From IMG/VR virus record IMGVR_UViG_2802429253_000011: a stretch of 12,094 nucleotides of DNA. One strand, 5' to 3'. The notes under the pieces are model-generated. The model saw nothing but the letters and a program-made list of their open reading frames with translations, had not been told where the DNA came from and made no database searches. The stretch comes from a virus. Its lineage: Duplodnaviria > Heunggongvirae > Uroviricota > Caudoviricetes. The position numbers and the translations under genes were made by a program. The first letter of the stretch is position 1. The number at the start of each line of letters is the position of its first letter. Below, in pieces: positions 177 to 12,094 of the stretch.

Positions 177-683
177 TTATCGCCCACGCACTACCAGTGC
201 CTGATCCAACTCCCGATATGCCTCAACCAGTTTCTCCAGAGAAACTCGACTTAAACCGCTGGGATTCGGCAATACCCAAATCTGCGTCGAACCAATGGTC
301 AGCGTTTGTTTCCCCCACTGCACGCCTCGCTGACTGAATCCCTGTTCATACGCCTGCTTACCCAGAATCGCCAACGCCTGCGGCTGATAATTCTCAATTT
401 TTTCAATTAGCTTGCGCCCACCTGCGTGCAATTCCTGCTTTGACACTTCATTAGCCTGCACCGTTGGCCTGTCAACCAGTTTGGTGACGCCACAACGATA
501 ATCCAGCAGATGCTGCGCTTCCTGCGGCTTCAACTGACGGTCGGTAAACCCGGCCTGATAAATCACCTTCCAGAAGCGATTCGCCGGATGGGCAAACGGA
601 AAACCAGACTCCGCGGAAGAAAGACCCGGATTGATGCCACAAAACACCACACGCAATCCTGGCGCAAGAATATCGTCAACCAT
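177..683 (-). CDS. mug: G/U mismatch-specific DNA glycosylase Mug (uracil-DNA glycosylase family 2), 168 aa
   Basis: Translation from the internal Met ([23 protein letters not shown]...[14 protein letters not shown]...LVVRGR) matches E. coli Mug almost residue for residue as recalled. ATG at 681-683 is preceded by AGGAG; stop TAA at 177-179. The track ORF 177..782 adds a 33-aa upstream extension that runs into the tRNA promoter region and is not supported. Confidence 0.9.
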
Positions 684-769
684 ATTAACTCCTGAACAAC
701 ACAACCCGCAGGAAGTATAACGAATTGAAAACACATTGTTTATAAAAACAGCAGCCGCGCGGTAATGGC

Positions 770-798
770 TGGATTGCGACACGGAGTTACTTTATAAT
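770..798 (+). promoter_or_regulatory. Probable sigma70 promoter of the tRNA gene
   Basis: TATAAT at 793-798 followed by a GC-rich discriminator (CCGC) about 10 bp before the mature tRNA 5' end at 809; -35 region is weak. Confidence 0.35.
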
Positions 799-808
799 CC
801 GCTACCAT

Positions 809-884
809 GGCCCCTTAGCTCAGTGGTTAGAGCAGGCGACTCATAATCGCTTGGTCGTTGGTTCAAACCCAACAGGGGCCACCA
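809..884 (+). tRNA. ileX: tRNA-Ile2 (anticodon CAU, lysidine-type; ileX/ileY class), 76 nt including encoded CCA
   Basis: Cloverleaf readable by eye: acceptor GGCCCCT/AGGGGCC, D-arm GCTC-AGTGGTTAG-GAGC, anticodon loop CTCATAA (CAT at 842-844), T-arm GTTGG-TTCAAAC-CCAAC, 3' ACCA. Overall sequence resembles E. coli ileX rather than Met/fMet tRNAs. The position next to mug matches the K-12 ileX locus as recalled. Confidence 0.85.
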
Positions 885-892
885 TATCTATC

Positions 893-929
893 AAGGGGTT
901 ACGTTAACAGCGTGACCCCTTCGTTTTTT
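893..929 (+). terminator. Intrinsic terminator of the tRNA gene
   Basis: Stem AAGGGGTTAC (893-902) / GTGACCCCTT (912-921) with one mismatch, 9-nt loop, followed by CGTTTTTT (922-929). Confidence 0.6.
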
Positions 930-1425
930 CTAGGATACCTATAGGATACCGTGACAGAGTATAAGCAGGTATAAAAACAACAAGTTACGCAACATCATAC
1001 CTGTCATGAAACTTTAACTATCCGACATGATAGCTGGTCGATAATCACGGATAATCCGTTATGTGGATCCCCATATCGGCATCAGGCCCACCAGCGTGAA
1101 GCGTTTTTCATTTTTCGCGGGTATAAAAAATCGATGGGGCTGGCAGTCCGGAAGACGTCAGGGTACAGAGATTTGACCCGCCCCTCCCTGTGCATGGGCA
1201 CAATAAGTAACCGAAGGCGGAATTCCGCCCTCGGTACTCACATATGAGAAACGATATTTCTTCCTCTGATAACCAAAATATGGGTATCACAAGTAACCCC
1301 CAAAATCTGGGTGTTGCTCTTACTACCCAAACTACGGGTAGTTTCCGTAATTTCATGGTCGAGTTGCAGATCTGCAACTCACCCACCAGCCAACGCAATT
1401 TTGCGTTATCGGGAATATCAGCAAG

Positions 1426-1713
1426 TTACCGCCGCAGCCGTTCCGGCTTCTTCCACTGGTAAGTATTTTTCGCGCTCTCCCTCCGTTGTTGAGAACGGCG
1501 ACGGTATGCCAGCAACTCAAGAACTCTGGTTCGTATGTTGCGCATATCCACGCCGTTAAGCTCAATACCGTCACGGCGCATCACCTCAGCCACCACACGC
1601 GCGTAATTTTCAGCGGTGACTGTATCCGGCTGCGCGGCCTGTTCGTCAGCCAACTGGCTGATTCCACCAGCACAGCGGATTAATCGCAGTATTTCAGATT
1701 CGGTCATTATCAT
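1426..1713 (-). CDS. Hypothetical 95-aa protein, translationally coupled to the TerS-like gene
   Basis: Its ATG (1711-1713) overlaps the TGA stop (1710-1712) of the upstream gene in an ATGA arrangement. No family recognised. The basic C-terminal tail may be read-through of non-coding DNA, so it could be a 5' fragment. Confidence 0.4.
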   Translation of the reverse strand: MIMTESEILRLIRCAGGISQLADEQAAQPDTVTAENYARVVAEVMRRDGIELNGVDMRNIRTRVLELLAYRRRSQQRRESAKNTYQWKKPERLRR

Positions 1714-2195
1714 GCCTGTTTTGCGACCTCATTCACTACGTCATTTTTTACCATCCGGCTGATAATCTGATTACACAAATCGTCAATAATTGACTGCACT
1801 CTGTTTACTGCCATCGGTTTAAGCCCGGCATCACGTGCCAGAATATTGGGGAGTTTTGCCAGTTCCTCGCTTACGATTTCCCCCCATATAGCCATCTCTT
1901 TTCGCACATCATCGGCGGGTATGAGTTGCGCCGTTTCCTGTTCGAACCTGAGGCGCTCACGTTCGGACTGATACCAGGCCTTACGGTCATGTGGCTCCAT
2001 TTCTTCCAGTGATGCCGGAACGGGAAGATCAAGAAAACAGGTCAGAATGTCAGTCACCCGATAGAGTTTCAGCTTGTCATGCCCTCCGGCTGGCTGGATG
2101 TTTTTCAACCTTGCCGCCGCAGTCTGACGACATATTCCCGCTATCGCCGCCAGTTGATTAATGTTCAGCATCAGATTTTTCAGTTCTCGATCCAT
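1710..2195 (-). CDS. Terminase small subunit-like protein (lambda Nu1-type N-terminal HTH), about 161 aa
   Basis: N-terminal LNINQLAAIAGICRQTAAARLKNIQPAGGHDKLKLYRVTDIL parallels the lambda Nu1 DNA-binding motif (KKQLADIFGASIRTIQNWQEQGMPV...EVLYDSAAVIKWY). Start chosen at the internal ATG 2193-2195 with GGAG 5 nt upstream; the track ORF runs to 2282 without an RBS. Confidence 0.55.
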   Translation of the reverse strand: MDRELKNLMLNINQLAAIAGICRQTAAARLKNIQPAGGHDKLKLYRVTDILTCFLDLPVPASLEEMEPHDRKAWYQSERERLRFEQETAQLIPADDVRKEMAIWGEIVSEELAKLPNILARDAGLKPMAVNRVQSIIDDLCNQIISRMVKNDVVNEVAKQA

Positions 2196-2348
2196 ACCCG
2201 CTCCAGAATGTTTTAAACATGCATCTTGCGAACAACTTTCAGAAGAGGTCAAAAAATGCGCTATATGTTGAGCATAAAACAAGCAAAATTAACATACTAA
2301 AAATAAAAATACTTAAAATTCAATATCATATAAAGATGATGATGACGA

Positions 2349-2421
2349 ATGAAAATGCAAAAACTAGCCTTTTTCCGCGCCGCTCCCGCCCCGTGGCAGG
2401 CCACCTCACCGGGAGGACCCA
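2349..2421. repeat. Copy A of a 73-bp direct repeat (partner at 5699-5771)
   Basis: 69 of 73 positions identical to copy B, no indels, same orientation. GC-rich core with dyad CTCCCG...CGGGAG. Lies between a terminator and the TerS-like operon. Confidence 0.8.
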
Positions 2422-2466
2422 CCCAAAAAAGGCGACTGTCACTATTGTTTATGCTCCATGAGCGAC

Positions 2467-2488
2467 AAAACCGCCCGCAGGCGGTTTT
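2467..2488 (-). terminator. Intrinsic terminator (bidirectional) after the gpI-like gene
   Basis: Perfect hairpin AAAACCGCC-CGCA-GGCGGTTTT, 18 bp beyond the gpI-like stop (2506-2508), T-runs on both sides. Confidence 0.6.
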
Positions 2489-2505
2489 ACATAAAACGTT
2501 TTGTA

Positions 2506-3177
2506 TCAGCGACCAATCACCACAATCTGGCCGCCATCCCCTTCGTCTGCCGTGCTGATCTCCTGAGAGACCACCCGCGACCCCACGCGCATTTCACCGT
2601 ACAGAACGGGCAGAACATTGCCCTGGGCAACCATGTTATCCAGTGAGGAGAAATAGGTGTTCTGTTTGCCGTTATCTGTACTTGCTGCCGTGGGCGTCCT
2701 GGCTTTCGGTGCCAGCATCTGCGCCACACCACCAAGTACCATACTGGCACCGAGAGAAAACAGGATACCGGTCATACCACCGGCCCCAATGGCTGCCCCC
2801 CATGCTGTAAGGGTGGCTCCGGCGGTAAAGAATGATCCGGCAATGGCGGCTGCTCCCAGGACAATCTGGAATACACCACCTGACTTGGCCCCGGCGACTC
2901 TGGGAACAATATGAATCACAGCGCCATCAGGCAGAGTCTCATGTAACTGCGCCGTTAATCCGGACGTGCTGACATCCTGCCCGGCAATCCGTACCTGATA
3001 CCAGCCGTCGCTCAGTTTCTGACGAAACGCCGGGAGCTGTGTGGCCAGCGCCCGGATGGCTTCGGCCCCCGTTTTCACACGCAGATCGATGCGGCGGCCA
3101 AATCGTTGTAAATCCCCGTAAAGGCAGATGCGTGCCATGCCTGGTGACGCCAGAGGGAGTGTGTGCGTCGCTGCCAT
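2506..3177 (-). CDS. Lambda tail-tip assembly protein I (gpI) homolog, 223 aa
   Basis: Translation MAATHTLPLASPGMARICLYGDLQRFGRRIDLRVKTGAEAIRALATQLPAFRQ... with a Gly/Ala-rich hydrophobic C-terminal half matches lambda gpI as recalled, nearly identical over the full length. ATG at 3175-3177, TGA at 2506-2508. Confidence 0.7.
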   Translation of the reverse strand: MAATHTLPLASPGMARICLYGDLQRFGRRIDLRVKTGAEAIRALATQLPAFRQKLSDGWYQVRIAGQDVSTSGLTAQLHETLPDGAVIHIVPRVAGAKSGGVFQIVLGAAAIAGSFFTAGATLTAWGAAIGAGGMTGILFSLGASMVLGGVAQMLAPKARTPTAASTDNGKQNTYFSSLDNMVAQGNVLPVLYGEMRVGSRVVSQEISTADEGDGGQIVVIGR

Positions 3178-3266
3178 TTGTCGGTATACCTCTCTCGTTT
3201 GCTCAGTTGTTCAGGAATATGGTGCGGCAGCTCGCCGCCCCACGTGTTCAAAGTACCGCCTTGTTG

Positions 3267-5180
3267 TCATGCTCCATTCGATTTCAGCAATCCACGATAA
3301 TCGAGGGCCGCGACACCTGCATCTATGCGCACCTTCCAGGCGACACCATCAACAGTAAAGCCCACCTGCTCCTCAAGATATGGCGTATCCATACCATCAA
3401 GATAAGCGACTTCTATTGTGTCCATCCCCTTAGCTGCGGCTACATACCATTCCTTGCTATTGGCCTTATCAAGACGTGGCTCAACAATTACTTCTGCCAT
3501 ATCTTTCACCACGTTAATGATGCCGGGGTTCTGATTGATAGTGCCCTCATCACCAACCGGAAAGACTGATGACGATGACAGAATGGCGCGACGCGCGGCA
3601 GATTCCAGCGCGGCAGGGACCAGAACAAAAGCAGGGGTAATATTCAGTGAGTCGCCGTTAGCATCCTCCTGGAGGCGCATCAGCTTACGGGCTTCATCAA
3701 GCCCCACCATGTCCATATCCTTCGCAATAAGATTTTTATGATCGGCATGGAATAACGCTTTACCATCCGTAAACTTGCCGTTGCTGGTTAACAGGAGATA
3801 AACCAGATTGCCAACTGTTCTGGCGGCTGCGCGTCCCATCGCCATGGGGATTGTAGTTAACTGGGTCAGGTCATCGTTGATAATGGCCTGACGGGTAACG
3901 GAAAAAATATTCCCGTACGTGGCCAGCGCAATAGGTACACCTTTATCGCTGGTGGTGATGTATTTATATTCCGCACCTTCCGGTACTTTATCCAGCTTTG
4001 AAAAACCATTCAGACCAACGCGCTTTGCTTCATGAAAGTTTGAAAGCGAACCGGTACGCGTCCATTTCTGGAACGTTTCGCCGCTGTCCTGCCAGCCTTT
4101 CAGTACAGATTTTTCAGCCCCACCAGCCAGAATATGAGAAAAATCACTGCTGCTGTGTGTAAAAGCCGCATTAACAACCTGCGAGCGATTAATAAAACCA
4201 CTCACAGTGATACCACGATCAACCAGTGATGCCTGGGCCATTTCAAAAAGGCTCATCATCGCGTAAGGGTTGCCTCGTTCAGGGCGTTCATACCCAAGAC
4301 GGGAATAAAGCCCCTGACGAATTGCATCACCTGTTATGTTTCCGTTTCCGGCATAGATATGAGGCGGGGTATTTTTATTGGATGGCGTGGACTCGCGCCC
4401 CAGCTCGTTCAACAGCTTTTCACGGGCCATTTCCGGTGTACATGATGCATCTTCCAGACACGCCATTTTGATCCCGTCGTAACGACTGCCGAACAGGCTA
4501 AACACTTCACTTATTCCATTGATGCGTTTCTGTTCATTACCAGCAATATTTGCCGCTCCCTGTGGCGGTGTAATCATTCCTTTAATGGTTTCCGGCATAT
4601 GTAAAAAATCTCCTGTACGTTTCGATTCAATTCGCGCCATTGCTCTGACGGATGGCAACAATTCATCAGCAAAACCGTGCTTAAGGCATTCTTTCCCATC
4701 CATCCAGGTTTCATCCTCCAGCATGGCGGTAATTTCCTGTGCTGATTTGCCCGTTTTTCTGGCATAAGCAGGGATTAACACGGTTTCCACCTTATCCAGC
4801 AAATCAGCATAATCACGCATATCGCCAGCATTTCCGCCAGAGATCCCCCACGGTTTATGGATCATCATCATGGCGTTCTCCGGCATCACTACACGATCGC
4901 CAGCCATTGCGACCACCGAAGCCATTGAAGCCGCAACACCATCGATATAAACCGTAATGTCTGCCGGATGATTCCGTAGCAGGTTATAGATGGCGATGCC
5001 TTCAAACACATCACCACCTGGTGAATGGATCCTCAGATTGATATGTGAAACATCGCCAAGGGCTTTCAGGTCTTCCGCGAACTGCTTTGCAGTAACACCG
5101 AAGCCGCCAATCTCCTCATAGATAGATATATCCGCCGCTCCGCGAACATCCGCCGCCTTAATGGTGTACCAGCGATTCAT
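3267..5180 (-). CDS. Fusion of prohead protease (ClpP/S14-like) and HK97-fold major capsid protein, 637 aa
   Basis: N-terminus carries ClpP-like motifs (INLRIHSPGGDVFEGIAIYNLL, DGVAASMASVVAMAGD, MMMIHKPWG); the C-terminal ~400 aa has the composition and length of an HK97-family capsid protein. Start ATG 5178-5180 overlaps the upstream stop (TAATG). Confidence 0.8.
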   Translation of the reverse strand: MNRWYTIKAADVRGAADISIYEEIGGFGVTAKQFAEDLKALGDVSHINLRIHSPGGDVFEGIAIYNLLRNHPADITVYIDGVAASMASVVAMAGDRVVMPENAMMMIHKPWGISGGNAGDMRDYADLLDKVETVLIPAYARKTGKSAQEITAMLEDETWMDGKECLKHGFADELLPSVRAMARIESKRTGDFLHMPETIKGMITPPQGAANIAGNEQKRINGISEVFSLFGSRYDGIKMACLEDASCTPEMAREKLLNELGRESTPSNKNTPPHIYAGNGNITGDAIRQGLYSRLGYERPERGNPYAMMSLFEMAQASLVDRGITVSGFINRSQVVNAAFTHSSSDFSHILAGGAEKSVLKGWQDSGETFQKWTRTGSLSNFHEAKRVGLNGFSKLDKVPEGAEYKYITTSDKGVPIALATYGNIFSVTRQAIINDDLTQLTTIPMAMGRAAARTVGNLVYLLLTSNGKFTDGKALFHADHKNLIAKDMDMVGLDEARKLMRLQEDANGDSLNITPAFVLVPAALESAARRAILSSSSVFPVGDEGTINQNPGIINVVKDMAEVIVEPRLDKANSKEWYVAAAKGMDTIEVAYLDGMDTPYLEEQVGFTVDGVAWKVRIDAGVAALDYRGLLKSNGA

Positions 5181-5386
5181 TATTCCCCCACCGATGCAAA
5201 ACCATTCTGATTAAGCCAGGTGTTTACGGCATGTCTGACAATCTGCGCCACACCTGGTAATGGTTTGTCAGGATGATGATTTATATGGTCGATCCTGTAC
5301 TGCTTAAGGCGCATAACGGTCTGCGCATCCAGATGAACGGAACCACCCCTGATATCGCCCGTGTTCAGGTCATTAATACAACTCAC
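5180..5386 (-). CDS. Hypothetical 68-aa protein, first gene of the capsid operon
   Basis: GTG start at 5384-5386 preceded by a strong RBS (AAGAGGAAG); stop overlaps the capsid start. Function unknown. Confidence 0.5.
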   Translation of the reverse strand: MSCINDLNTGDIRGGSVHLDAQTVMRLKQYRIDHINHHPDKPLPGVAQIVRHAVNTWLNQNGFASVGE

Positions 5387-5487
5387 AGTAACTTCCTCTT
5401 ACTGACTAAACTGTGCACATTATTGATCGATAAAAGTGGTAGATAAACATATTTCTATCATAAAAACAGATTAATGAGATTCAGACA

Positions 5488-5511
5488 CAAAAAAGCCGGA
5501 GAAAATCCGGC
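5488..5511 (-). terminator. Intrinsic terminator or attenuator in the leader upstream of the 68-aa gene
   Basis: On the minus strand GCCGGA-UUUUC-UCCGGC followed by six U (plus-strand stem 5495-5511, A-run 5489-5494). Confidence 0.5.
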
Positions 5512-5698
5512 ATAAATATCCCGCCATCTGAACACGTTTTGACACAGGCAACTCCACCTGGCAGGTGAAAAACAGATTTATTTATATATTTCAATTAATT
5601 GCAAACTGGTCTAATGACAGGGAGAAAAAAATATTGTACAGGTGAAAACAGAAATAACTTTTAATTATCAATAAATTATCACACATGCTGCCGCCGCC

Positions 5699-5771
5699 AT
5701 GAAAATGCAAAAACCAGCCTTTTTCCGCGCCGCTCCCGCCCCGTGGCAGGTCACTACACCGGGAGGACCCA
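5699..5771. repeat. Copy B of the 73-bp direct repeat (partner at 2349-2421)
   Basis: Differs from copy A only at 5715, 5751, 5755 and 5756. Abuts the terminator at 5772-5795. Confidence 0.8.
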
Positions 5772-5795
5772 TAAAAAAGCCGGATTGCTCCGGCT
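5772..5795 (-). terminator. Intrinsic terminator ending the primase/origin transcription unit
   Basis: Stem AGCCGGA (5778-5784) / TCCGGCT (5789-5795), loop TTGC; on the minus strand it is followed by six U (complement of A5773-A5778). Confidence 0.6.
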
Positions 5796-5931
5796 TCTGT
5801 CACTCGTTGCTTAAAACGGTATGTTATCCCCGTACGGATCATCATTCCCCGCCTGTTGTTTTGGTGTGCTTCGCTGTCATAGGCTTTATCTCACAGCAGT
5901 AAATTAAAATTTTTGCGTTTTAACCCTTCAC

Positions 5932-6154
5932 CTGTTCACCTTTTGATATTTTCTCTTTTAATTCATAATGTTAAGGGGTGAACAGTTTCACAAAAACTAT
6001 TCACCAACTGTTCACCACTGTTCACCCTTGAAGCTCAATAAACAATCAAAAAGGTGAACAGTGAATAGTTTGGTGAACAGTTCATAAATAACTGTTCACC
6101 CTATAATATACTGATATAAAAGATATTTATGACAGGGTGAACAGTGGTGAACAG
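5932..6154. repeat. Iteron array, candidate replication origin (P4 ori/crr-like)
   Basis: Eleven copies of CTGTTCACC or its complement GGTGAACAG (two of them variants, CTATTCACC and GTGAATAG) at 5932, 5977, 5997, 6008, 6018, 6053, 6061, 6072, 6092, 6136 and 6146, in both orientations, interleaved with AT-rich tracts (5941-5974, 6101-6134). Ends 20 bp from the primase stop. TGTTCACC is the type I iteron bound by P4 alpha protein. Confidence 0.75.
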
Positions 6155-6173
6155 TTATTCCATAAGTTTAATT

Positions 6174-7985
6174 TTAGCTATCGTCATTAGTGACCGATAC
6201 ACATGATGGCATCCAGTCTTCTGATTCCTCCGTCAGTGTCACGTTTGAACGCAAACCGTGCTTCGTTTTCCGTTTCATATACTCCCTGCCATATTCCGCC
6301 ATTGCCCCCGGCATATCTTTACCGAAGCGCGTCAGTGTTACAGGTTTACCAAACCCATGTGCCCTCATATAAGCCAGATAGGCATGATAGAGATACCTGC
6401 GTGGGCTGAATGGCACAATTTCAGCATTACCCACTAACAGGCCATCACACATTACCGACGCCATGAGATAGCCGCAGAAGTCCACCAGCGAATCCCCCTC
6501 TCGCTTTATCGCCAGTGCTTCTTCAGATTTCTGCTGCTCATATAACAGGCGTCTGGCTTCGTCCTGGTCAGCAAACCGTGTAAGCAGATGGCGAATCACT
6601 ACCGCCAGCTCACCTTCTATTTTTTCCGCCAGCATTGGATCGCGTTCGTTCTCCGGTACAACTTCCGAAAAATTGAATATCACCCGACGACGTGAGATCC
6701 CCCCGCTGCGGTCACTGAATGACATGGCGTTATTGTTAACCGCCAGCACTACTGCCGGAATACGCGTTGAGTAGGGGGCTTTGTGTTTCGGGTCAATTGC
6801 CACCTTGTCACCGCCTGTAATAGCCTTAATCCCTGCCCCATCACCAGCGTAGCGGGTCATATCCGGCATGATAATCAGCGAAAAGCCAACCACTAACGCG
6901 CGTTCCCTTGCATCTTCCAGCGCCTTCATGCTTGCCGATACTGTGTTGGCCTTACCCGCCAGCATGGTGCAAATCTCCGCCATCACGCTTTTACCACTTC
7001 CCCCTGGACCTGTTACCTCAATGAATAACTGCCAGTCGTACCGGTTCGCCAGCACCATGAATAATGCAGCCAGTACGCGATCCGCCTTGCGGTCATTCTC
7101 AGCCACCGAACGGCGTAACCACTTCCAGAAATTCGGCGCATGTGTTGCCAGCGTTTCCCCCTCTGCTGGTGGGCTGAAAGGTAATTCACTGGCAATTAAC
7201 AACCAGTCGTTTTTGTTATGCTCCCGAAAATTACCTGTTCTGGTATCAAATACCCCGTTACTGAATCCAATCAGGTTACGGGCTGTATTCCCCATAACAG
7301 GCAAACTTAACTTCATGGTATCGACCGCCGATTTAATGGCGTTCTGCGAATAGCTGATCTCCGCATCAATGAAAATCTGTGCCATAGCTCGCTGTAATTC
7401 TTTATCCTGTACTGGCTCCCATACAACGCCGTTGTAATGGTGAACAGTATCAGAGTCGGCATGAATCGCCAGTTCACCGCCATAATGTGCCAGGAGAACT
7501 TCGCCGCGTTGACTTGCTCCCATCTGGTTAAGCGCCAGTGATGAAGCGTTATCGTCTTTTACCCGCTCTTTTTTCTTTACAGGCAGTTCAACTACCTTTT
7601 TCTTTTCCGCCTGCTCTGCCCGTTCACGTTCCAGATATTCGCGCCAGTTCTCCCGTTTCTGGCTGTGCATTCCTTCAGGATAATAATCAGCATCCCTGAC
7701 ACCGGCCGCTGCCAGTTTCTGCCCGATGGTATTAACAAGCCCCGGACGCAATAACCCCGCCTGATAGAGACGCACACGATAGCGTCCGTCCGGTACGATT
7801 TGCAGGTTGTCCAGTTCGGCAAGTTGTTGCTCTCCAAGCCAGACAGGAGGCACGTTATCGCCAGCCAGTCGCCCGTCCTGTTCCTGCCACTGCTTCGCAT
7901 GTGCCCACGCATCACTACCCGCAAAAATGATGACTTCCGTCATTTTGTCACGTGGCTGGTGTTTTAAATTTGGCGCTTTTTTCAT
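6174..7985 (-). CDS. P4 alpha-type primase/helicase (N-terminal primase region, SF3 helicase with Walker A GPGGSGKS)
   Basis: Long ORF with VTGPGGSGKS, followed by residues typical of the phage/plasmid primase P4-family C-terminal domain. Start assigned to ATG 7983-7985, which overlaps the upstream stop (ATGA); track start is a GTG at 8000. Iterons lie directly downstream. Confidence 0.8.
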   Translation of the reverse strand: MKKAPNLKHQPRDKMTEVIIFAGSDAWAHAKQWQEQDGRLAGDNVPPVWLGEQQLAELDNLQIVPDGRYRVRLYQAGLLRPGLVNTIGQKLAAAGVRDADYYPEGMHSQKRENWREYLERERAEQAEKKKVVELPVKKKERVKDDNASSLALNQMGASQRGEVLLAHYGGELAIHADSDTVHHYNGVVWEPVQDKELQRAMAQIFIDAEISYSQNAIKSAVDTMKLSLPVMGNTARNLIGFSNGVFDTRTGNFREHNKNDWLLIASELPFSPPAEGETLATHAPNFWKWLRRSVAENDRKADRVLAALFMVLANRYDWQLFIEVTGPGGSGKSVMAEICTMLAGKANTVSASMKALEDARERALVVGFSLIIMPDMTRYAGDGAGIKAITGGDKVAIDPKHKAPYSTRIPAVVLAVNNNAMSFSDRSGGISRRRVIFNFSEVVPENERDPMLAEKIEGELAVVIRHLLTRFADQDEARRLLYEQQKSEEALAIKREGDSLVDFCGYLMASVMCDGLLVGNAEIVPFSPRRYLYHAYLAYMRAHGFGKPVTLTRFGKDMPGAMAEYGREYMKRKTKHGLRSNVTLTEESEDWMPSCVSVTNDDS

Positions 7986-8281
7986 TTCTGCTCTCTCCAC
8001 GCGGCAATCATGTTTTTCAGTTCCTGTAGTTTTTTATCCACATTCACACGTGACACATGGTTATTTCTGGAAAGCGGGATTTCCCGCCTGAATCTGCTAA
8101 TAAAGATCTCCACGTTCAGCGAACTATGAAATGAATAGCCATCACGAATAAAATACACACGGTCAAACATTATCGATTTTACTGTTACTCTGTTGCCGTT
8201 CTTATCCCGATAAATAGCGCCGGGGATAATTTTGGGATGTGCATAACCGCTGGCAGTCAAGCCAGATAAATACGTTCTCAT
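7982..8281 (-). CDS. Hypothetical 99-aa protein, coupled to the primase
   Basis: ATG 8279-8281; stop overlaps the primase start. No family recognised. Confidence 0.5.
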   Translation of the reverse strand: MRTYLSGLTASGYAHPKIIPGAIYRDKNGNRVTVKSIMFDRVYFIRDGYSFHSSLNVEIFISRFRREIPLSRNNHVSRVNVDKKLQELKNMIAAWREQK

Positions 8282-8287
8282 GATTAT

Positions 8288-8608
8288 TTATCCCCGATTT
8301 GAATCAGTATTCGCTTTCTTTATGGCATTTAATGCATCTGTGGCATTTTCAATGGTGCACCGTAACGAAATATCAAAATGTCCAAGCATTGCCAGTAACA
8401 AACCGATATTACCCATATCAATGCGCATGGCCTTTTCGTCATAGTCCTCATTTTCTGACGCATGCCACATCAGGCTACCAATTGACGCAACGGCCATTGA
8501 TATATTGTCAGTCGCCACATCCGCAGCGGAATAAACCTTTTTAGCAATATCATGCTCACAGTTAAAATGCGGATTAATCAGGTACTGGTAATTTGACATA
8601 TCAGGCAT
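8288..8608 (-). CDS. Hypothetical 106-aa protein
   Basis: ATG 8606-8608 overlaps the upstream stop (ATGCCTGA); RBS GGGGG. Acidic protein, no family recognised. Confidence 0.5.
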   Translation of the reverse strand: MPDMSNYQYLINPHFNCEHDIAKKVYSAADVATDNISMAVASIGSLMWHASENEDYDEKAMRIDMGNIGLLLAMLGHFDISLRCTIENATDALNAIKKANTDSNRG

Positions 8609-8804
8609 GGCACACCCCCTGACGAATACGGGCGGCGAATACCATCACGCAGCCAGCCGGGGATTGCTGGCGTGCTTCCTGTTCGCTGGTGGCCACGATG
8701 GTAATCACACGCGGTTTTGCGGCGCTCAGGGCGATAAAACGCCAGGCGAATTTATTCAGGTTGTGCGAATCCCGCCCTTGCGGGTGTATGGTATGATTTC
8801 TCAT
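8601..8804 (-). CDS. Small Icd-like protein (P4-family host cell division inhibitor-like), 67 aa
   Basis: MRNHTIHPQGRDSHNLNKFAWRFIALSAAKPRVITIVATSEQEARQQSPAGCVMVFAARIRQGVCHA; ATG 8802-8804 with GAGG 6 nt upstream. The track merges it into a 334-aa ORF whose upstream part is antisense to real plus-strand genes. Family call is from memory of Icd-like annotations. Confidence 0.5.
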   Translation of the reverse strand: MRNHTIHPQGRDSHNLNKFAWRFIALSAAKPRVITIVATSEQEARQQSPAGCVMVFAARIRQGVCHA

Positions 8805-8842
8805 AGCTACCTCGATACTCTCGTTATCGTTGGTGGTTAGAA

Positions 8843-8887
8843 GCCCTGCGAGTGGTAACGACACTTGCGGGGCTTTGTTTTTTGTTG
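8843..8887 (+). terminator. Plus-strand intrinsic terminator or attenuator in the divergent control region
   Basis: 12-bp stem (8843-8854 / 8862-8873) with two G-U wobble pairs that only pair in plus-strand RNA, 7-nt loop, then UUUGUUUUUUGUUG. Confidence 0.5.
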
Positions 8888-8899
8888 CACTTACTGTTA

Positions 8900-8950
8900 A
8901 TGTACGTACGTAATATTGATGATAATAGGAGTTACGTACGTACATGTCAA
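8900..8950 (-). promoter_or_regulatory. Leftward promoter (TTGACA-17-TATTAT) overlapped by a pair of 14-bp perfect inverted repeats (operator)
   Basis: On the minus strand, -35 TTGACA is at 8950-8945 and -10 TATTAT at 8927-8922 with a 17-bp spacer. ATGTACGTACGTAA (8900-8913) and TTACGTACGTACAT (8932-8945) are exact reverse complements and flank the RBS and start codon of the RHH gene. Confidence 0.6.
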
Positions 8951-9135
8951 CATTAAAGCGGGATAAATCACCACGCGGCGAGGGATGGTCGCCGACATTC
9001 CAGATACGAATTAGCAAAGAACTACGCCAGCAAGTAAACGAGGCAGCAACCGCCGATGGCCTAACCCTCGGCAATTGGTTTAAAGAATTAGCTCGTGCCG
9101 AACTAAAGCGACGCGGCATTGAACCTAAAGGCTGA
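8944..9135 (+). CDS. Ribbon-helix-helix (Arc/CopG-like) DNA-binding protein, 63 aa
   Basis: FQIRISKELRQQVNEAATADGLTLGNWFKELARAEL has the strand-helix-helix pattern of RHH regulators. AGGAG at 8927-8931; start codon sits inside the right operator arm. Confidence 0.55.
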   Translation: MSTLKRDKSPRGEGWSPTFQIRISKELRQQVNEAATADGLTLGNWFKELARAELKRRGIEPKG

Positions 9136-9138
9136 TGT

Positions 9139-9264
9139 ATGACTGAAAAGCAGACCGATAACAAACTTTCTCTACCAGAGAATAAACCAGCAGGCTTCTT
9201 ACCAAGAAAAATCCTTGATGAGATCAAACGCCGCCAGCGGCGCAAGGCCAAAGAGCAGGAGTAA
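9139..9264 (+). CDS. Possible 41-aa basic peptide, or 5' part of an interrupted gene
   Basis: ATG 4 nt after the RHH stop; ends at TAA 9262-9264; same frame as the next ORF. Confidence 0.2.
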   Translation: MTEKQTDNKLSLPENKPAGFLPRKILDEIKRRQRRKAKEQE

Positions 9265-9321
9265 CCATCACCAGCGCCGTGGTGCGGTGAACTGTGGCGC
9301 ACAGGGTTACAGGTATCTACG

Positions 9322-9501
9322 ATGACTGACAAATCATTAAAGAAATTATCCTCATCCAAGAAAAAACAACGCAAAAATGCGGTAAACGAACATGAACCGG
9401 AGAGATTCGCACCATGTGCGTTTATCCTTGAGAAGTACCTTAAAGAGTATTCTAGGAAAATACGCTCATTGCAGGCATGGCAGCGAATCGAGCCAGACTG
9501 A
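9322..9501 (+). CDS. Possible 59-aa Lys-rich protein, or 3' part of an interrupted gene
   Basis: ATG 9322-9324 to TGA 9499-9501; in frame with 9139-9264 and no other stops between them; followed by a terminator. Confidence 0.2.
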   Translation: MTDKSLKKLSSSKKKQRKNAVNEHEPERFAPCAFILEKYLKEYSRKIRSLQAWQRIEPD

Positions 9502-9566
9502 TAGCATTGCCCACCAGCCAACAACCTGGTATTCTGGATATGCTCAAGTTTAGTGTTATGCCACTG

Positions 9567-9594
9567 GCGGCCCTCTGCGGTCGCCTTTGTTTTA
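9567..9594 (+). terminator. Intrinsic terminator of the rightward small operon
   Basis: Stem GGCGGCC (9567-9573) / GGTCGCC (9579-9585) with one G-U pair, 5-nt loop, then UUUGUUUUAUG. Confidence 0.5.
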
Positions 9595-9611
9595 TGTGCC
9601 ATCACTCCCCC

Positions 9612-9821
9612 TTACACCGTCTGCGTTCTGCGAGTGGATGCAAGATAAGCATCGAGATCAGTGCGCATATACAGCACTTTGCGCCCCAGCTTATGGAAAG
9701 GGATTTTTACCTTGCCAGTACAGGCCCAGTTCGCCAGCGTTTGATTGTTAACGCCAAGGTAGGCAGCAGCTTCAGCACGTGTAAGGCGGTCAGTTGATAA
9801 ATCAGATTTCTTTAAATTCAT
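9612..9821 (-). CDS. AlpA/Xis-family helix-turn-helix DNA-binding protein, about 69 aa
   Basis: LTRAEAAAYLGVNNQTLANWACTGKVKIPFHKLGRKVLYMRTDLDAYL fits the small AlpA/excisionase-type HTH family. ATG 9819-9821 chosen; an alternative GTG at 9830 gives 72 aa. Confidence 0.7.
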   Translation of the reverse strand: MNLKKSDLSTDRLTRAEAAAYLGVNNQTLANWACTGKVKIPFHKLGRKVLYMRTDLDAYLASTRRTQTV

Positions 9822-9882
9822 ATCTATCACCGTGTACTTCTAAGTAACAACGGTGATAAATATCAATCAATGGGTATTTTGT

Positions 9883-9968
9883 TTTTAGCCCAATAGCCAG
9901 TTGCTGTGGGGAGGTTACCAGTTATTTAGCCTTAATAGCCAGCTATTAAGATACACTAGCCAGCTATT
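9883..9968. promoter_or_regulatory. Operator-like repeats upstream of the AlpA-like gene
   Basis: Two ~24-bp direct repeats (9883-9907, 9925-9948) each containing the ATAGCCAG motif; the second holds the perfect palindrome AATAGC-CA-GCTATT (9934-9947); a third copy TAGCCAGCTATT is at 9957-9968. Confidence 0.45.
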
Positions 9969-10689
9969 GGGGGTGAACAAGTTCAAACGAAGAATATTTA
10001 TCAGGTCTTGGTGGTTGTGCTCCTGATTCTTTAATCCATTTATCCAGAGTGTTTTTACTTACTTTCCCATGATAGTAAACAGAAAGCTCGTTCAATAAAC
10101 CTGTTTTACTGGCTTTAGGGTACTTTTCCCATGTTAGTTTAATTACGTGCATAACTTCATTGTAATAATGATTTCTTGGTTTGCGCGCTTTTTCTTTCTG
10201 TGATAAGGATAAAGCATCTTTTATTTTTTTATCTTTTTCATGGTTCGATATAATTTCTTCAAAAAAGTCATTAAGCAATAACTCAACACCAACCCTAGTA
10301 AGTTTGTCTGCGTGATTACGCATTCCGACATGGTACAATGCAACTGCTGAATTTAAAGTATCGACAACCTGACAAGATAGTTTACTATCAAATATTAAAA
10401 AACCACATGAATCCATTCTTATAGCTAATTCAATAGGATATTGCTCGATTTCTCTTAATTCTAAACCATAACACAAAAGAAATTCTCTTGTTGGATACTT
10501 TGATTTATAAAAATAATCTCTTATATCATCAATCAAGCGTTTTATAGCCTCTATGGTGGAGTTTTTCGGGGATAAAGATACAGGAACGTTTAAAACTGAA
10601 GAGTCTCGCCCACCAGTAATTAAATCATTCATAACCGAATAAATAATATATTGTTTGACCGATATATTGTTATCACCCATATATGTCAT
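9964..10689 (-). CDS. Hypothetical protein (238-241 aa), AT-rich, translationally coupled to the integrase
   Basis: ORF noticeably more AT-rich than its neighbours by eye. Candidate ATG at 10678-10680 overlaps the integrase stop (ATGGGTGA); track start is at 10689. No motif recognised (no Walker A, no transmembrane segment). Confidence 0.55.
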   Translation of the reverse strand: MTYMGDNNISVKQYIIYSVMNDLITGGRDSSVLNVPVSLSPKNSTIEAIKRLIDDIRDYFYKSKYPTREFLLCYGLELREIEQYPIELAIRMDSCGFLIFDSKLSCQVVDTLNSAVALYHVGMRNHADKLTRVGVELLLNDFFEEIISNHEKDKKIKDALSLSQKEKARKPRNHYYNEVMHVIKLTWEKYPKASKTGLLNELSVYYHGKVSKNTLDKWIKESGAQPPRPDKYSSFELVHPQ

Positions 10690-12094
10690 TCTTTTCTTGT
10701 ACTATAGCAAATAGTAAACGACGTTTTTCATCATCACTCATGCCCTCCAGTGCGGAAAGTAATTGCGCATCGATAGATTTTTTACTCTCCACCAGCCCGG
10801 CATGTTCCAGAATTGCCCGTTCTATCCGTGATGCTGGCTCCAGCAGTTCATCAGCACCGAAATGTAAATACCCCTGCGTTACGTCGGCACTTCGCATAGT
10901 GCGGTGATTCATCAGGCGCTTGAGGATGTAATTACCCACGCCCACCAGCTCAGCAACCGTTCCGAACGTCCGGCGTGCGTCGTGCCACTTAAACGGGACA
11001 GGGAAGAGCATTTCATCGTTCGCCTCAGGAATGGTAGCCGCGCTTATCCGGTCTATGATGTGCCGTGTCTCCTGAATCACTCCCTTCACGCCAGGAAACA
11101 CCAGCACATCATCAGCAGCTTTGTTTTTTAGCCTGCGAAGAAACATTTTCCGCAACGTATCAGTGATCGGCAGTTCAAGCGGATCCCCGTTTTTCGTGGT
11201 GTCTATCCAGAAAAAGCGACCGCCCATATTCACGCGATCCCACGTAAGGCCAAAAACTTCTGATTTCCTCAGTCCGGTAAACAGTGCCATTTCCACGGCA
11301 TCACATACCGTAACAGCTATATCATCCCTTTCCTGTTCGCCCTGGTCGCGCACAGCAGCTACAGCAGCAAACCAGCGGGGAAAATCATGCAGGCGGATAC
11401 GTTCCGTTTTTCTTACCGTTCCGTGCCACTGGCGCTTGGTGCTCAGTACCAGAGTCGGCGGATCCGGTAAAAGAGTATTACCCGCATCATCACGGTAATG
11501 ATCATGCGCAAACCGACACACAGCACGTAGCGCACGCGCCCATAAATCGGCCTGTGCCTTGCTTCCTGTACCAACCCCAGCCCGTAACGTGGTTTTATCA
11601 GCACCGAACCATACAGCCCCATCAGTGATGGCCTTATGCCGTTGTTCCACCCGTTCGCGGGAAATACTGGCGAGGGTATGGGCCATCCAGTCACCGGAAT
11701 AATTCTGTAATATGCTGCGGTACTGTTTTTCTGTGGAGGGTTTCAGGCGGTGGCCACGATTTTTTACGTAGGCGTCAATCGCCTCACTCAGCGTTATCAT
11801 GGCCTTGTTGTTAGTGCGCTTTGCTATGTTCGGATTTATCCCCGTTGTGGCGACTTCGCCAAGGAGTTCCATAGCTTTAGCCCTGGCATTATCCACGCTC
11901 AGATCAGGAAAACGCCCCAGCGTTGCACGAATAAATTTTCCGTTACGCTTACGGGAAATGCAGAAACTTTTCACACCAGACGAACCTACACGGACACGCA
12001 GCCCGTTAACCTCCGTATCACCATATTCGACCTGTCCATGTTCCGGCGTTGGCAGTTCTGCAATTTTTACTTTAGAGAATCTGAATAATTTCAC
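10673..12094 (-). CDS. Tyrosine recombinase/integrase (P4-type with N-terminal arm-binding DUF4102-like domain), 5' end at window edge
   Basis: N-terminus GLRVRVGSSGVKSFCISRKRNGKFIRATLGRFPDLSVDNARAKAMELL is typical of P4-family integrase arm domains; C-terminal HDARRT and downstream Tyr region fit the catalytic domain. The only in-window start is a GTG at 12092-12094, so the true start may lie beyond the window. Confidence 0.8.
   Translation of the reverse strand: MKLFRFSKVKIAELPTPEHGQVEYGDTEVNGLRVRVGSSGVKSFCISRKRNGKFIRATLGRFPDLSVDNARAKAMELLGEVATTGINPNIAKRTNNKAMITLSEAIDAYVKNRGHRLKPSTEKQYRSILQNYSGDWMAHTLASISRERVEQRHKAITDGAVWFGADKTTLRAGVGTGSKAQADLWARALRAVCRFAHDHYRDDAGNTLLPDPPTLVLSTKRQWHGTVRKTERIRLHDFPRWFAAVAAVRDQGEQERDDIAVTVCDAVEMALFTGLRKSEVFGLTWDRVNMGGRFFWIDTTKNGDPLELPITDTLRKMFLRRLKNKAADDVLVFPGVKGVIQETRHIIDRISAATIPEANDEMLFPVPFKWHDARRTFGTVAELVGVGNYILKRLMNHRTMRSADVTQGYLHFGADELLEPASRIERAILEHAGLVESKKSIDAQLLSALEGMSDDEKRRLLFAIVQEKNDIYG

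Follow-up and report, generated by a model that had tools for sequence, protein, structure and literature searches.

The window, by which we mean the whole 12,094-nt stretch of IMG/VR record IMGVR_UViG_2802429253_000011 that was analysed, carries an island in which all genes are encoded on the minus strand. The gene order runs from the integrase through the regulatory and replication genes to the capsid fusion gene, gpI, the DUF1441 gene and a gene for a 95-aa protein (Table 1). Further minus-strand genes encode a DUF4222 protein, between the Icd-like gene and the primase gene, and a 68-aa protein, between the iterons and the capsid fusion gene. Across positions 177-12094, IMG/VR contig UViG_2802429247_000011 and the window are 100% identical. 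A search of the whole window against Rfam (E<=1) returned the tRNA as the sole match, with none at the gpI cassette or at the 80-nt repeat.

Table 1. Coordinates of the features in the window, and of Pseudomonas loci carrying the orphan gpI module
Feature	Position	Strand	Basis
gpI (lambda tail-tip hub/plug) CDS, 223 aa	2506..3177	-	ORF, Pfam, phmmer
Nucleotide homology to lambdoid phages: the final ~60 nt of K ahead of the I start, the whole of I and the greater part of the I-J spacer	2451..3237	-
Whole insertion relative to the cassette-free sister islands L001 and L002 (7 bp there)	2435..3255	-	alignment
3' remnant of K (C40 peptidase), sharing 103 nt with the start of I, as phage K does	3075..3237	-
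89-nt spacer from the capsid-fusion stop codon to the gpI ATG	3178..3266	-	structure z = 0.08
Imported lambda I-J hairpin, AAAACCGCC-TGCG-GGCGGTTTT, likely transcript end after gpI	2467..2488	-
Left half of the original post-capsid terminator, CAACAAGGCGG, parted from its partner by the insertion	3256..3266	-
Right half of the original terminator (TCGCC + T-run)	2425..2435	-
First copy of the 80-nt cos-like element, immediately after the cassette and ahead of the TerS-like gene	2349..2428	-
cos-like 80-nt element, copy 2	5699-5778
ClpP-like prohead protease/major capsid fusion, presumably the cistron ahead of gpI on a shared transcript	3267..5180	-
DUF1441/phrog_141 small-terminase-like (TerS-like) gene, downstream neighbour of gpI	1710..2195	-
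GGTGAACAGTT iterons, direct and inverted cluster just downstream of the primase gene	5954-6169
D5_N/DUF5906 primase	6174-8000	-	Pfam
Icd-like cell-division-inhibitor gene (NF033153)	8601-8810	-
HTH_17 (AlpA-like) regulator	9612-9830	-	Pfam
241-aa protein, no family	9964-10689	-
Integrase, cut by the window end	10673-12094	-
tRNA abutted by the island, next to mug	809-884
Pseudomonas orphan-module loci	L112 10604-12061; L113-L116, L156, L174, L175, L190; L194-L212

The gpI reading frame starts with ATG, and its product was matched by the Pfam family PF06805 (Lambda_tail_I) over residues 14-97 with 97.7 bits against a cutoff of 23.8 (E 5.5e-28), showing that the N-terminal ubiquitin-like domain passes the gathering threshold. 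NCBIfam gave no model for gpI. A phmmer search against the PDB aligned residues 1-223 with residues 1-223 of the lambda 'Tail tip assembly protein I' (8iyk_I; E 8.9e-138), and 216 of the 223 residues are identical from end to end. The seven substitutions are R67Q, A124T, R163T, I164A, Q165A, T166S and V218I. The hydrophobic helices H1 and H2, the plug (residues 159-175) and the C-terminal strands are all colinear with lambda gpI. An earlier note on this DNA had described the gene as a full-length, near-identical homolog of lambda gpI, which this alignment confirms; the full-length match also excludes that the similarity is local or confined to a Gly/Ala-rich segment. Thus, judged by its sequence, the product of 2506-3177 is a member of the gpI family.

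The nucleotide sequence of the gene shares 95-96.6% identity with the I genes of lambdoid phages. The closest prophage allele, which is flanked by K and J, differs from the window allele at 9 nucleotides and a single amino acid, the conservative V218I. There is no truncation and no satellite-specific domain change. The variant TAAS plug (residues 163-166) was considered as a change specific to satellites and ruled out, as it is also present in phage PhiR26_1 and in one helper prophage. Being one residue away from a natural prophage allele, the window allele looks like a working gpI and not like a modified decoy. It differs from its relatives in location: all 80 close IMG/VR relatives of the gene adjoin K and/or J, whereas the window gene does not. 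Rather than K and J of a siphovirus tail operon, its neighbours are the capsid fusion gene and the DUF1441 gene.

Homology to lambda within the window is restricted to a cassette of about 0.8 kb, which is also the sole helper-like DNA of high identity in the satellite. In phages, the 3' end of K and the first 103 nt of I overlap, and 60 nt separate the end of I from J. The cassette includes 55 of the 60 nt of the I-J spacer and ends just short of the ribosome-binding site of J. Neither a full K nor any part of J was found in the window, based on its ORFs and on homology to phages. The claim that gpI is isolated from both genes therefore stands, with the addition that a 3' stub of K has been retained. 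RefSeq annotates this stub in related islands as a 162-bp pseudogene. It corresponds to a 58-codon ORF (3251-3075, minus strand) with a TTG start 16 nt past the capsid stop codon, preceded by AAGG. Translation of this ORF, if it occurs, would extend past the gpI start, like that of K in lambda, and translational coupling might thereby be kept. The GC content is 0.55-0.59 in the cassette, as compared to approximately 0.46-0.51 in the capsid gene.

At the site of the insertion, one terminator has given way to another. In the empty site of sister islands L001 and L002, an intrinsic terminator (GGGCGGC-GATA-GCCGCC-TTTTTTT; dG -19.8, z -3.9) immediately follows the capsid stop codon, and in the window the two halves of this terminator stand on either side of the insert. 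The spacer between the capsid gene and gpI shows no terminator-like structure and carries the GAGAGG ribosome-binding site of lambda. Downstream of gpI, the hairpin is stable (dG -22.7 kcal/mol, z -3.65) and is the one that lambda itself has between I and J; the record of phage Ayreon lists a terminator feature at the corresponding site. The earlier note had placed gpI between a capsid gene and a terminator, and both neighbours proved to be real, the terminator having arrived with the gene. With the original terminator lost and the I-J hairpin gained, gpI would be the downstream cistron of the late (capsid) transcript of the satellite. A scan for sigma-70 promoters across 1300-6200 gave no candidate on the minus strand, so gpI is probably silent until the late operon fires.

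The heptanucleotide ATGGAGC is present both in the I-J spacer of phages and at the capsid gene 3' end, which suggests that the cassette was captured through a microhomology join. A scan of the GTDB species representatives for the exact junction gave no match. An assembly artefact or a degraded prophage was ruled out as an explanation for the arrangement, since the same junctions occur in 23 complete genomes, at several loci and on one circular molecule.

The two 80-nt elements are direct repeats with 91% identity, and they flank the block of the 68-aa, capsid and gpI genes in direct orientation. Their counterpart in mEp460-like phages is the sequence ahead of terS. In two phage records base 1 falls inside this match, corresponding to a cut at approximately window positions 2391-2396. 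Since two records start inside it, the 80-nt element is taken to contain a cohesive-end site. The DUF1441 terS of the helper is preceded by the same element. The repeat was also considered as a structured RNA, but it folds no better than shuffled sequences (z -0.7 and -1.5) and cos explains it better. The cassette thus lies approximately 40 nt from a cos-like site.

That the element is a satellite, as the earlier note had assumed, is supported by its integrase, HTH_17 (AlpA-like) regulator, Icd-like gene, D5_N primase with iterons, capsid-protease fusion, TerS-like DUF1441 gene and cos-like sites. Gram-negative PICIs are defined as excisable elements of 10-20 kb with site-specific insertion. 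In the present family of islands, the integrase and the HTH_17 regulator are located at one end, followed by the primase and then by the iterons, presumably with the GGTGAACAGTT cluster as the satellite origin. The late zone is related to that of helpers and contains a helper-type cos, insertion is at a tRNA or in a helper late gene, and one gpI-bearing relative (L004, NZ_CP148328.1, strain Z1323HEC0475) is a 10,790-bp circular 'plasmid' record. Based on this organization, we classify the element as a Gram-negative PICI-type satellite. The chromosome of strain Z1323HEC0475 has a match to the DUF1441 terS at 80% identity, possibly in a helper prophage.

Several smaller observations were made on the island. 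The Phage_AlpA profile itself gave no score on the HTH_17 protein. The Icd-like gene is nested in a 334-codon ORF (8601-9605) that is probably spurious. The 241-aa protein beside the integrase has no match in Pfam, PHROG, NCBIfam or PADLOC, and this end of the island may be a variable accessory slot; HEPN-domain proteins and IS903B are among the features of related islands. A PDB search with the DUF1441 protein gave no match, and hence no link to the solved Rpp/TerS structures. ARAGORN predicts the tRNA as tRNA-Met (CAT), whereas RefSeq annotates the same gene in related genomes as tRNA-Ile, a disagreement that probably accounts for the published 'tRNA-Met PICIs'. The match to some related islands, which lie at other chromosomal positions, starts at base 806.

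Other satellites with gpI reside within the terminase gpA gene of lambdoid prophages (L024 24853-36181, L014 and L015), co-oriented with the late operon, and are therefore helper-embedded PICIs. Their integrases differ from that of the window island, which indicates that the late module with gpI has been combined with several integration modules.

To assess the distribution of the cassette, 5,426 complete E. coli genomes were searched, counting the satellite capsid gene at >=90% nucleotide identity. The capsid gene was present in 196 genomes, and the cassette was found in satellite context in 23 of these (approximately 12%). The nearest island overall, GF4 (97.9% identity), does not carry it. 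Thus, with the cassette missing from approximately 88% of the islands including the closest relative, it is an accessory and not a core gene of the satellite. The earlier note had named absence or loss of function in related islands as grounds for abandoning its reading: absence is indeed the rule, whereas a broken reading frame was seen at none of 25 cassette-bearing loci. At all 25, the junctions are identical and the gene is intact, encoding 223 or 213 aa, and no decayed or partial cassette was found among these loci or among the top matches in the 5,426 genomes. Neighbouring satellite genes are broken elsewhere, with an internal stop in the DUF1441 gene of L73 and a frameshift in the integrase gene of GF4. 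The exact window protein is encoded on seven contigs, all in satellite context and at no fewer than three chromosomal sites, and the cassette as a whole is spread over at least four integration contexts, several continents and several hosts.

The variable sites revealed a gene body composed of blocks that match different phage I alleles, between flanks that are constant. The 3' marker I218 is present at 24 of the 25 satellite loci as compared to 1 of 80 prophage alleles. In FDAARGOS_1259 (L011), the 3' end of the capsid gene is 100% identical to the window over 834 nt (3267-4100), yet the gpI allele is the 213-aa one, which points to a very recent replacement of the allele, limited to the cassette. 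We read these patterns as a single capture, after which internal segments were replaced repeatedly by homologous recombination. The 213-aa allele, which carries the AIWMPGISIAFSDILF segment, is at least 99.6% identical in its centre among 14 satellites, while the best prophage match is 93.5%; its central 281 nt are 100% identical in 13 of 14 complete genomes.

The question is then whether the gene is kept for what it encodes. One alternative is that the cassette is a neutral passenger, a by-product of recombination near cos between the satellite and a co-replicating helper, which hitchhikes on a successful satellite lineage with no effect on fitness. The reading frame would then be open only because the cassette is young and repeatedly overwritten by phage copies. 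The presence of the cassette in only 23 of 196 capsid-bearing genomes and its absence from the nearest island agree with this explanation, as do the very high identity to phage alleles and the little diversity within allele classes. Moreover, capture of helper late genes by Gram-negative PICIs has been described as common, and knockout of a PICI capsid gene was tolerated (PMC10111431). Recombination with homologous phage copies might alone suffice to maintain an open frame, and since many copies are near-identical by recent descent, the finding that all are intact is weak evidence for selection. Against a passenger speak the lack of decayed copies in a setting where neighbouring satellite genes do pseudogenise, and the spread over integration contexts, continents and hosts. 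The satellite-private changes lean synonymous, with five synonymous and two non-synonymous changes, a small count that gives weak support for purifying selection on the satellite I gene (p ~ 0.01-0.03 on a 3:1 expectation). A further argument comes from Pseudomonas satellites that keep gpI homologs with 47-100% mutual identity on a backbone with 81-99% identity (see below). Taken together, we consider a passenger rather unlikely, although it is the strongest of the alternatives.

The cassette might also serve as DNA rather than as a gene, with its 0.8 kb of near-identity to helpers aiding recombination, co-integration and further capture. The clear signs of repeated homologous exchange within the cassette alone speak for such a homology patch, but an intact frame is not required for it and all copies are intact. 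Furthermore, homology to helpers was already provided by cos and the TerS-like gene, and co-integrates were not seen. This explanation therefore appears very improbable.

The relationship between satellite and helper alleles was compared in three helper-embedded pairs. In one pair, the helper is a lambdoid prophage with a DUF1441 terS, a gpA-type terL, a portal gene, a ClpP/capsid fusion, a lambda-like tail and an intact K-I-J segment. The I genes of this satellite and its helper are 96.0% identical at the nucleotide level with five amino acid differences, as compared to amino acid identities of 57% for the capsid fusion and 67% for the TerS-like protein. In the two other pairs, the satellite carries the 213-aa allele and the helper a 215-aa allele of the same broad class; these are 84% identical in nucleotide sequence and differ mostly in the hydrophobic helices. 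Compatibility with the helper is thus not guaranteed in these two pairs. The helper's own I gene is intact in all three prophages, which shows that complementation is not needed in those three.

In the solved lambda tails, gpI forms a trimeric plug inside the distal tail-tip complex, where it contacts gpJ and the C-terminus of gpH (PMC11101478, PMC12617516). The plug (residues 159-175; domain map from PMC11101478) closes the lumen, and strands of gpI thread through gpJ; binding to LamB opens the plug, and insertion of the two hydrophobic helices into the outer membrane has been proposed (PMC11101478, PMC12617516). The earlier note had proposed that gpI adapts the satellite head to lambdoid tails. 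Because gpI is located at the distal tip, far from the head-tail joint (PMC11101478, PMC12617516), it cannot adapt the head to the tail, and we discard this proposal.

Since the satellite needs tails and the window protein reads as a working gpI, we favour, with a confidence that is moderate at best, the hypothesis that a captured and still functional tail-tip gene, co-transcribed with the satellite capsid gene, joins helper tail-tip assembly. In outline, a genuine, assembly-competent lambdoid I gene would have been captured once, as a cassette of about 0.8 kb, from a helper similar to lambda or mEp460. Illegitimate recombination would have placed it in the terminator behind the protease-capsid fusion gene, beside the cos-like site, thereby removing the terminator between the capsid gene and gpI and bringing in the lambda I-J hairpin. 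When the helper switches the satellite on, satellite gpI would be made alongside the helper's own and would enter helper tail-tip assembly, with three copies per tail. The cassette would travel with the satellite to several integration sites, swapping internal segments with helper I alleles by homologous recombination. The likeliest benefit may be a modest 'spare part' or an effect of dosage or compatibility on the tails on which the satellite depends.

The opposite effect on tails has also been considered. According to an interference or defence hypothesis, of which the decoy suggested in the earlier note is a version, satellite gpI in excess or mismatched to J and H of an infecting phage would be a poison subunit in tail tips. 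Non-cognate lambdoid phages would then yield tail-less or non-ejecting particles, as with the Tai systems by another route. Such a role is suggested by the tail-assembly inhibitors of PICIs and P4-like satellites, which act through J and are located in accessory hot spots including one beside cos (PMC11364771), a position comparable to that of the cassette. It is also suggested by the 213-aa allele, which is satellite-specific and unlike the alleles of two embedded helpers mainly in the region of the hydrophobic helices. However, helper tails are needed by the satellite itself, and the window allele is one conservative residue (V218I) from a natural prophage allele, with a TAAS plug that also occurs in PhiR26_1 and a helper prophage. 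The BLASTP comparison of gpI with the right-end ORFs of phi80, the region of TaiEcA, gave no match at E<=10, and in PADLOC no defence model matched gpI or its small neighbours. The lack of a sigma-70-like promoter, by which the gene is probably silent before the late operon fires, also disagrees with a role against infecting phages. A decoy that disturbs helper tails is thus not favoured, and we consider interference in general to be distinctly unlikely for the window gene.

Satellites of Pseudomonas provide an independent view of the gene. Phage phiAH14b (KU708005) is a satellite of phiAH14a that encodes a 'tail assembly protein I' (Dziewit lab 2016, PMC4936722). The element has an integrase-AlpA-primase/helicase organization, in which the gpI homolog follows the replication genes and is the sole tail gene. 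The homolog is full-length and matched by PF06805, and since its identity to the window protein is only 31% (E 1e-27), it represents an independent acquisition. Among 80 loci with gpI homologs in Pseudomonas species representatives, eight have the phiAH14b-type primase/helicase backbone, and the gene is intact in all eight; one of these loci also has a long downstream ORF. When sampling was instead based on the helicase, gpI was present in 10 of 19 informative IMG/VR loci of the phiAH14b family, and the module is thus accessory in these satellites as well. In this family, the gene is always paired with a gene for the 126-aa protein p19, often with a lipoprotein gene, and never with K, L or J. 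The gpI homologs are at most approximately 84% identical in amino acid sequence to prophage alleles, a far greater divergence than that of the window gene. Among themselves they range from 47 to 100% identity, as compared to 81-99% for the helicases. The orphan module of p19 and gpI, often followed by the lipoprotein, was observed in phiAH14b-like satellites and also at six other loci without tail genes, some of which are near DUF4062 or AAA_13 proteins.

We conclude from these comparisons that satellites have acquired gpI at least twice, and that at least one family has kept it over a long divergence. The Pseudomonas data also bear on interference. The phiAH14a/phiAH14b pair gave only tail-less particles (PMC4936722), and the orphan gpI homolog occurs always with p19 and never with tail genes, both of which would fit a poisoning role, but the tail-less phenotype has not been linked to the gpI gene. 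A broader hypothesis is that, among the tail genes, gpI alone is repeatedly acquired and retained by satellites, for control of helper tails, either by poisoning non-cognate tips or by setting the ejection or compatibility of the particles that carry the satellite. We offer this generalization as a speculation that is unlikely.

A lack of tail genes is usually part of what defines a satellite. In SatelliteFinder, tail profiles are listed as forbidden components (PMC10085698). A satellite with a tail-tip gene that exchanges alleles with its helpers is an exception to this definition, and one that current detectors would filter out. If gpI is recurrently acquired, such satellites would be systematically missed because tail genes are 'forbidden' in SatelliteFinder. 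The single 0.8-kb cassette, which is naturally present or absent in otherwise near-identical islands, also offers a handle on the influence of satellites over the helper tail tip. Even as a mere passenger, it would be a clean, base-resolved example of late-gene capture by a PICI, with insertion in a terminator beside cos, a replacement terminator and later allele swapping.

In comparison with known systems, the window gene is most similar to lambda gpI itself (PF06805; PDB 8IYK/8IYL/8K35/8XCG/9E7M), with which it shares length, domains, ribosome-binding site and downstream hairpin. It differs from lambda gpI by its location outside a tail operon, behind a satellite capsid gene, and by the 3' marker I218. 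The Tai systems of PICIs, prophages and P4-like satellites (He et al. 2024, PMC11364771) are likewise satellite-borne and accessory and touch J-centred tail-tip assembly, and in P4-like satellites they share the position beside cos. However, Tai proteins are not tail components, whereas gpI is a tail component itself. Capsid-forming PICIs share with the window island the structural virion genes and the dependence on helper tails, but they encode terL, a portal and a head-tail adaptor/connector (Alqurainy 2023; bioRxiv 10.1101/2025.02.19.639094). None of these genes was found among the window ORFs with Pfam or PHROG, and gpI acts at the opposite end of the tail. As far as can be judged from these sequences, the window gene is not a Tai homolog and the island is not a capsid-forming PICI.

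A parallel for the event itself is provided by the Gram-negative PICIs, for which both late-gene capture and embedding in helpers have been described (Tommasini, Mageeney & Williams 2023, PMC10111431; Fillol-Salom 2018/2019). The window island shares with them the integration, regulatory, replication and late zones, helper-derived DNA in the late zone and, for some copies, insertion in a helper terminase gene (PMC10111431). The same study reports tRNA-'Met' islands that carry a CLP_protease gene, and these fit the window (PMC10111431). A search of the supplement of the helper-embedded satellite preprint for Lambda_tail_I and DUF1441 returned none. The captures described previously are mostly of capsid genes or long clusters, with tail M or L in 0 of 476 satellite models (PMC10111431), whereas the capture in the window is a precise one-gene cassette with a single tail-tip gene that was later diversified by allele exchange. 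Thus, the event is an instance of the late-gene capture described for these satellites, unusual in that a single tail-tip gene was taken.
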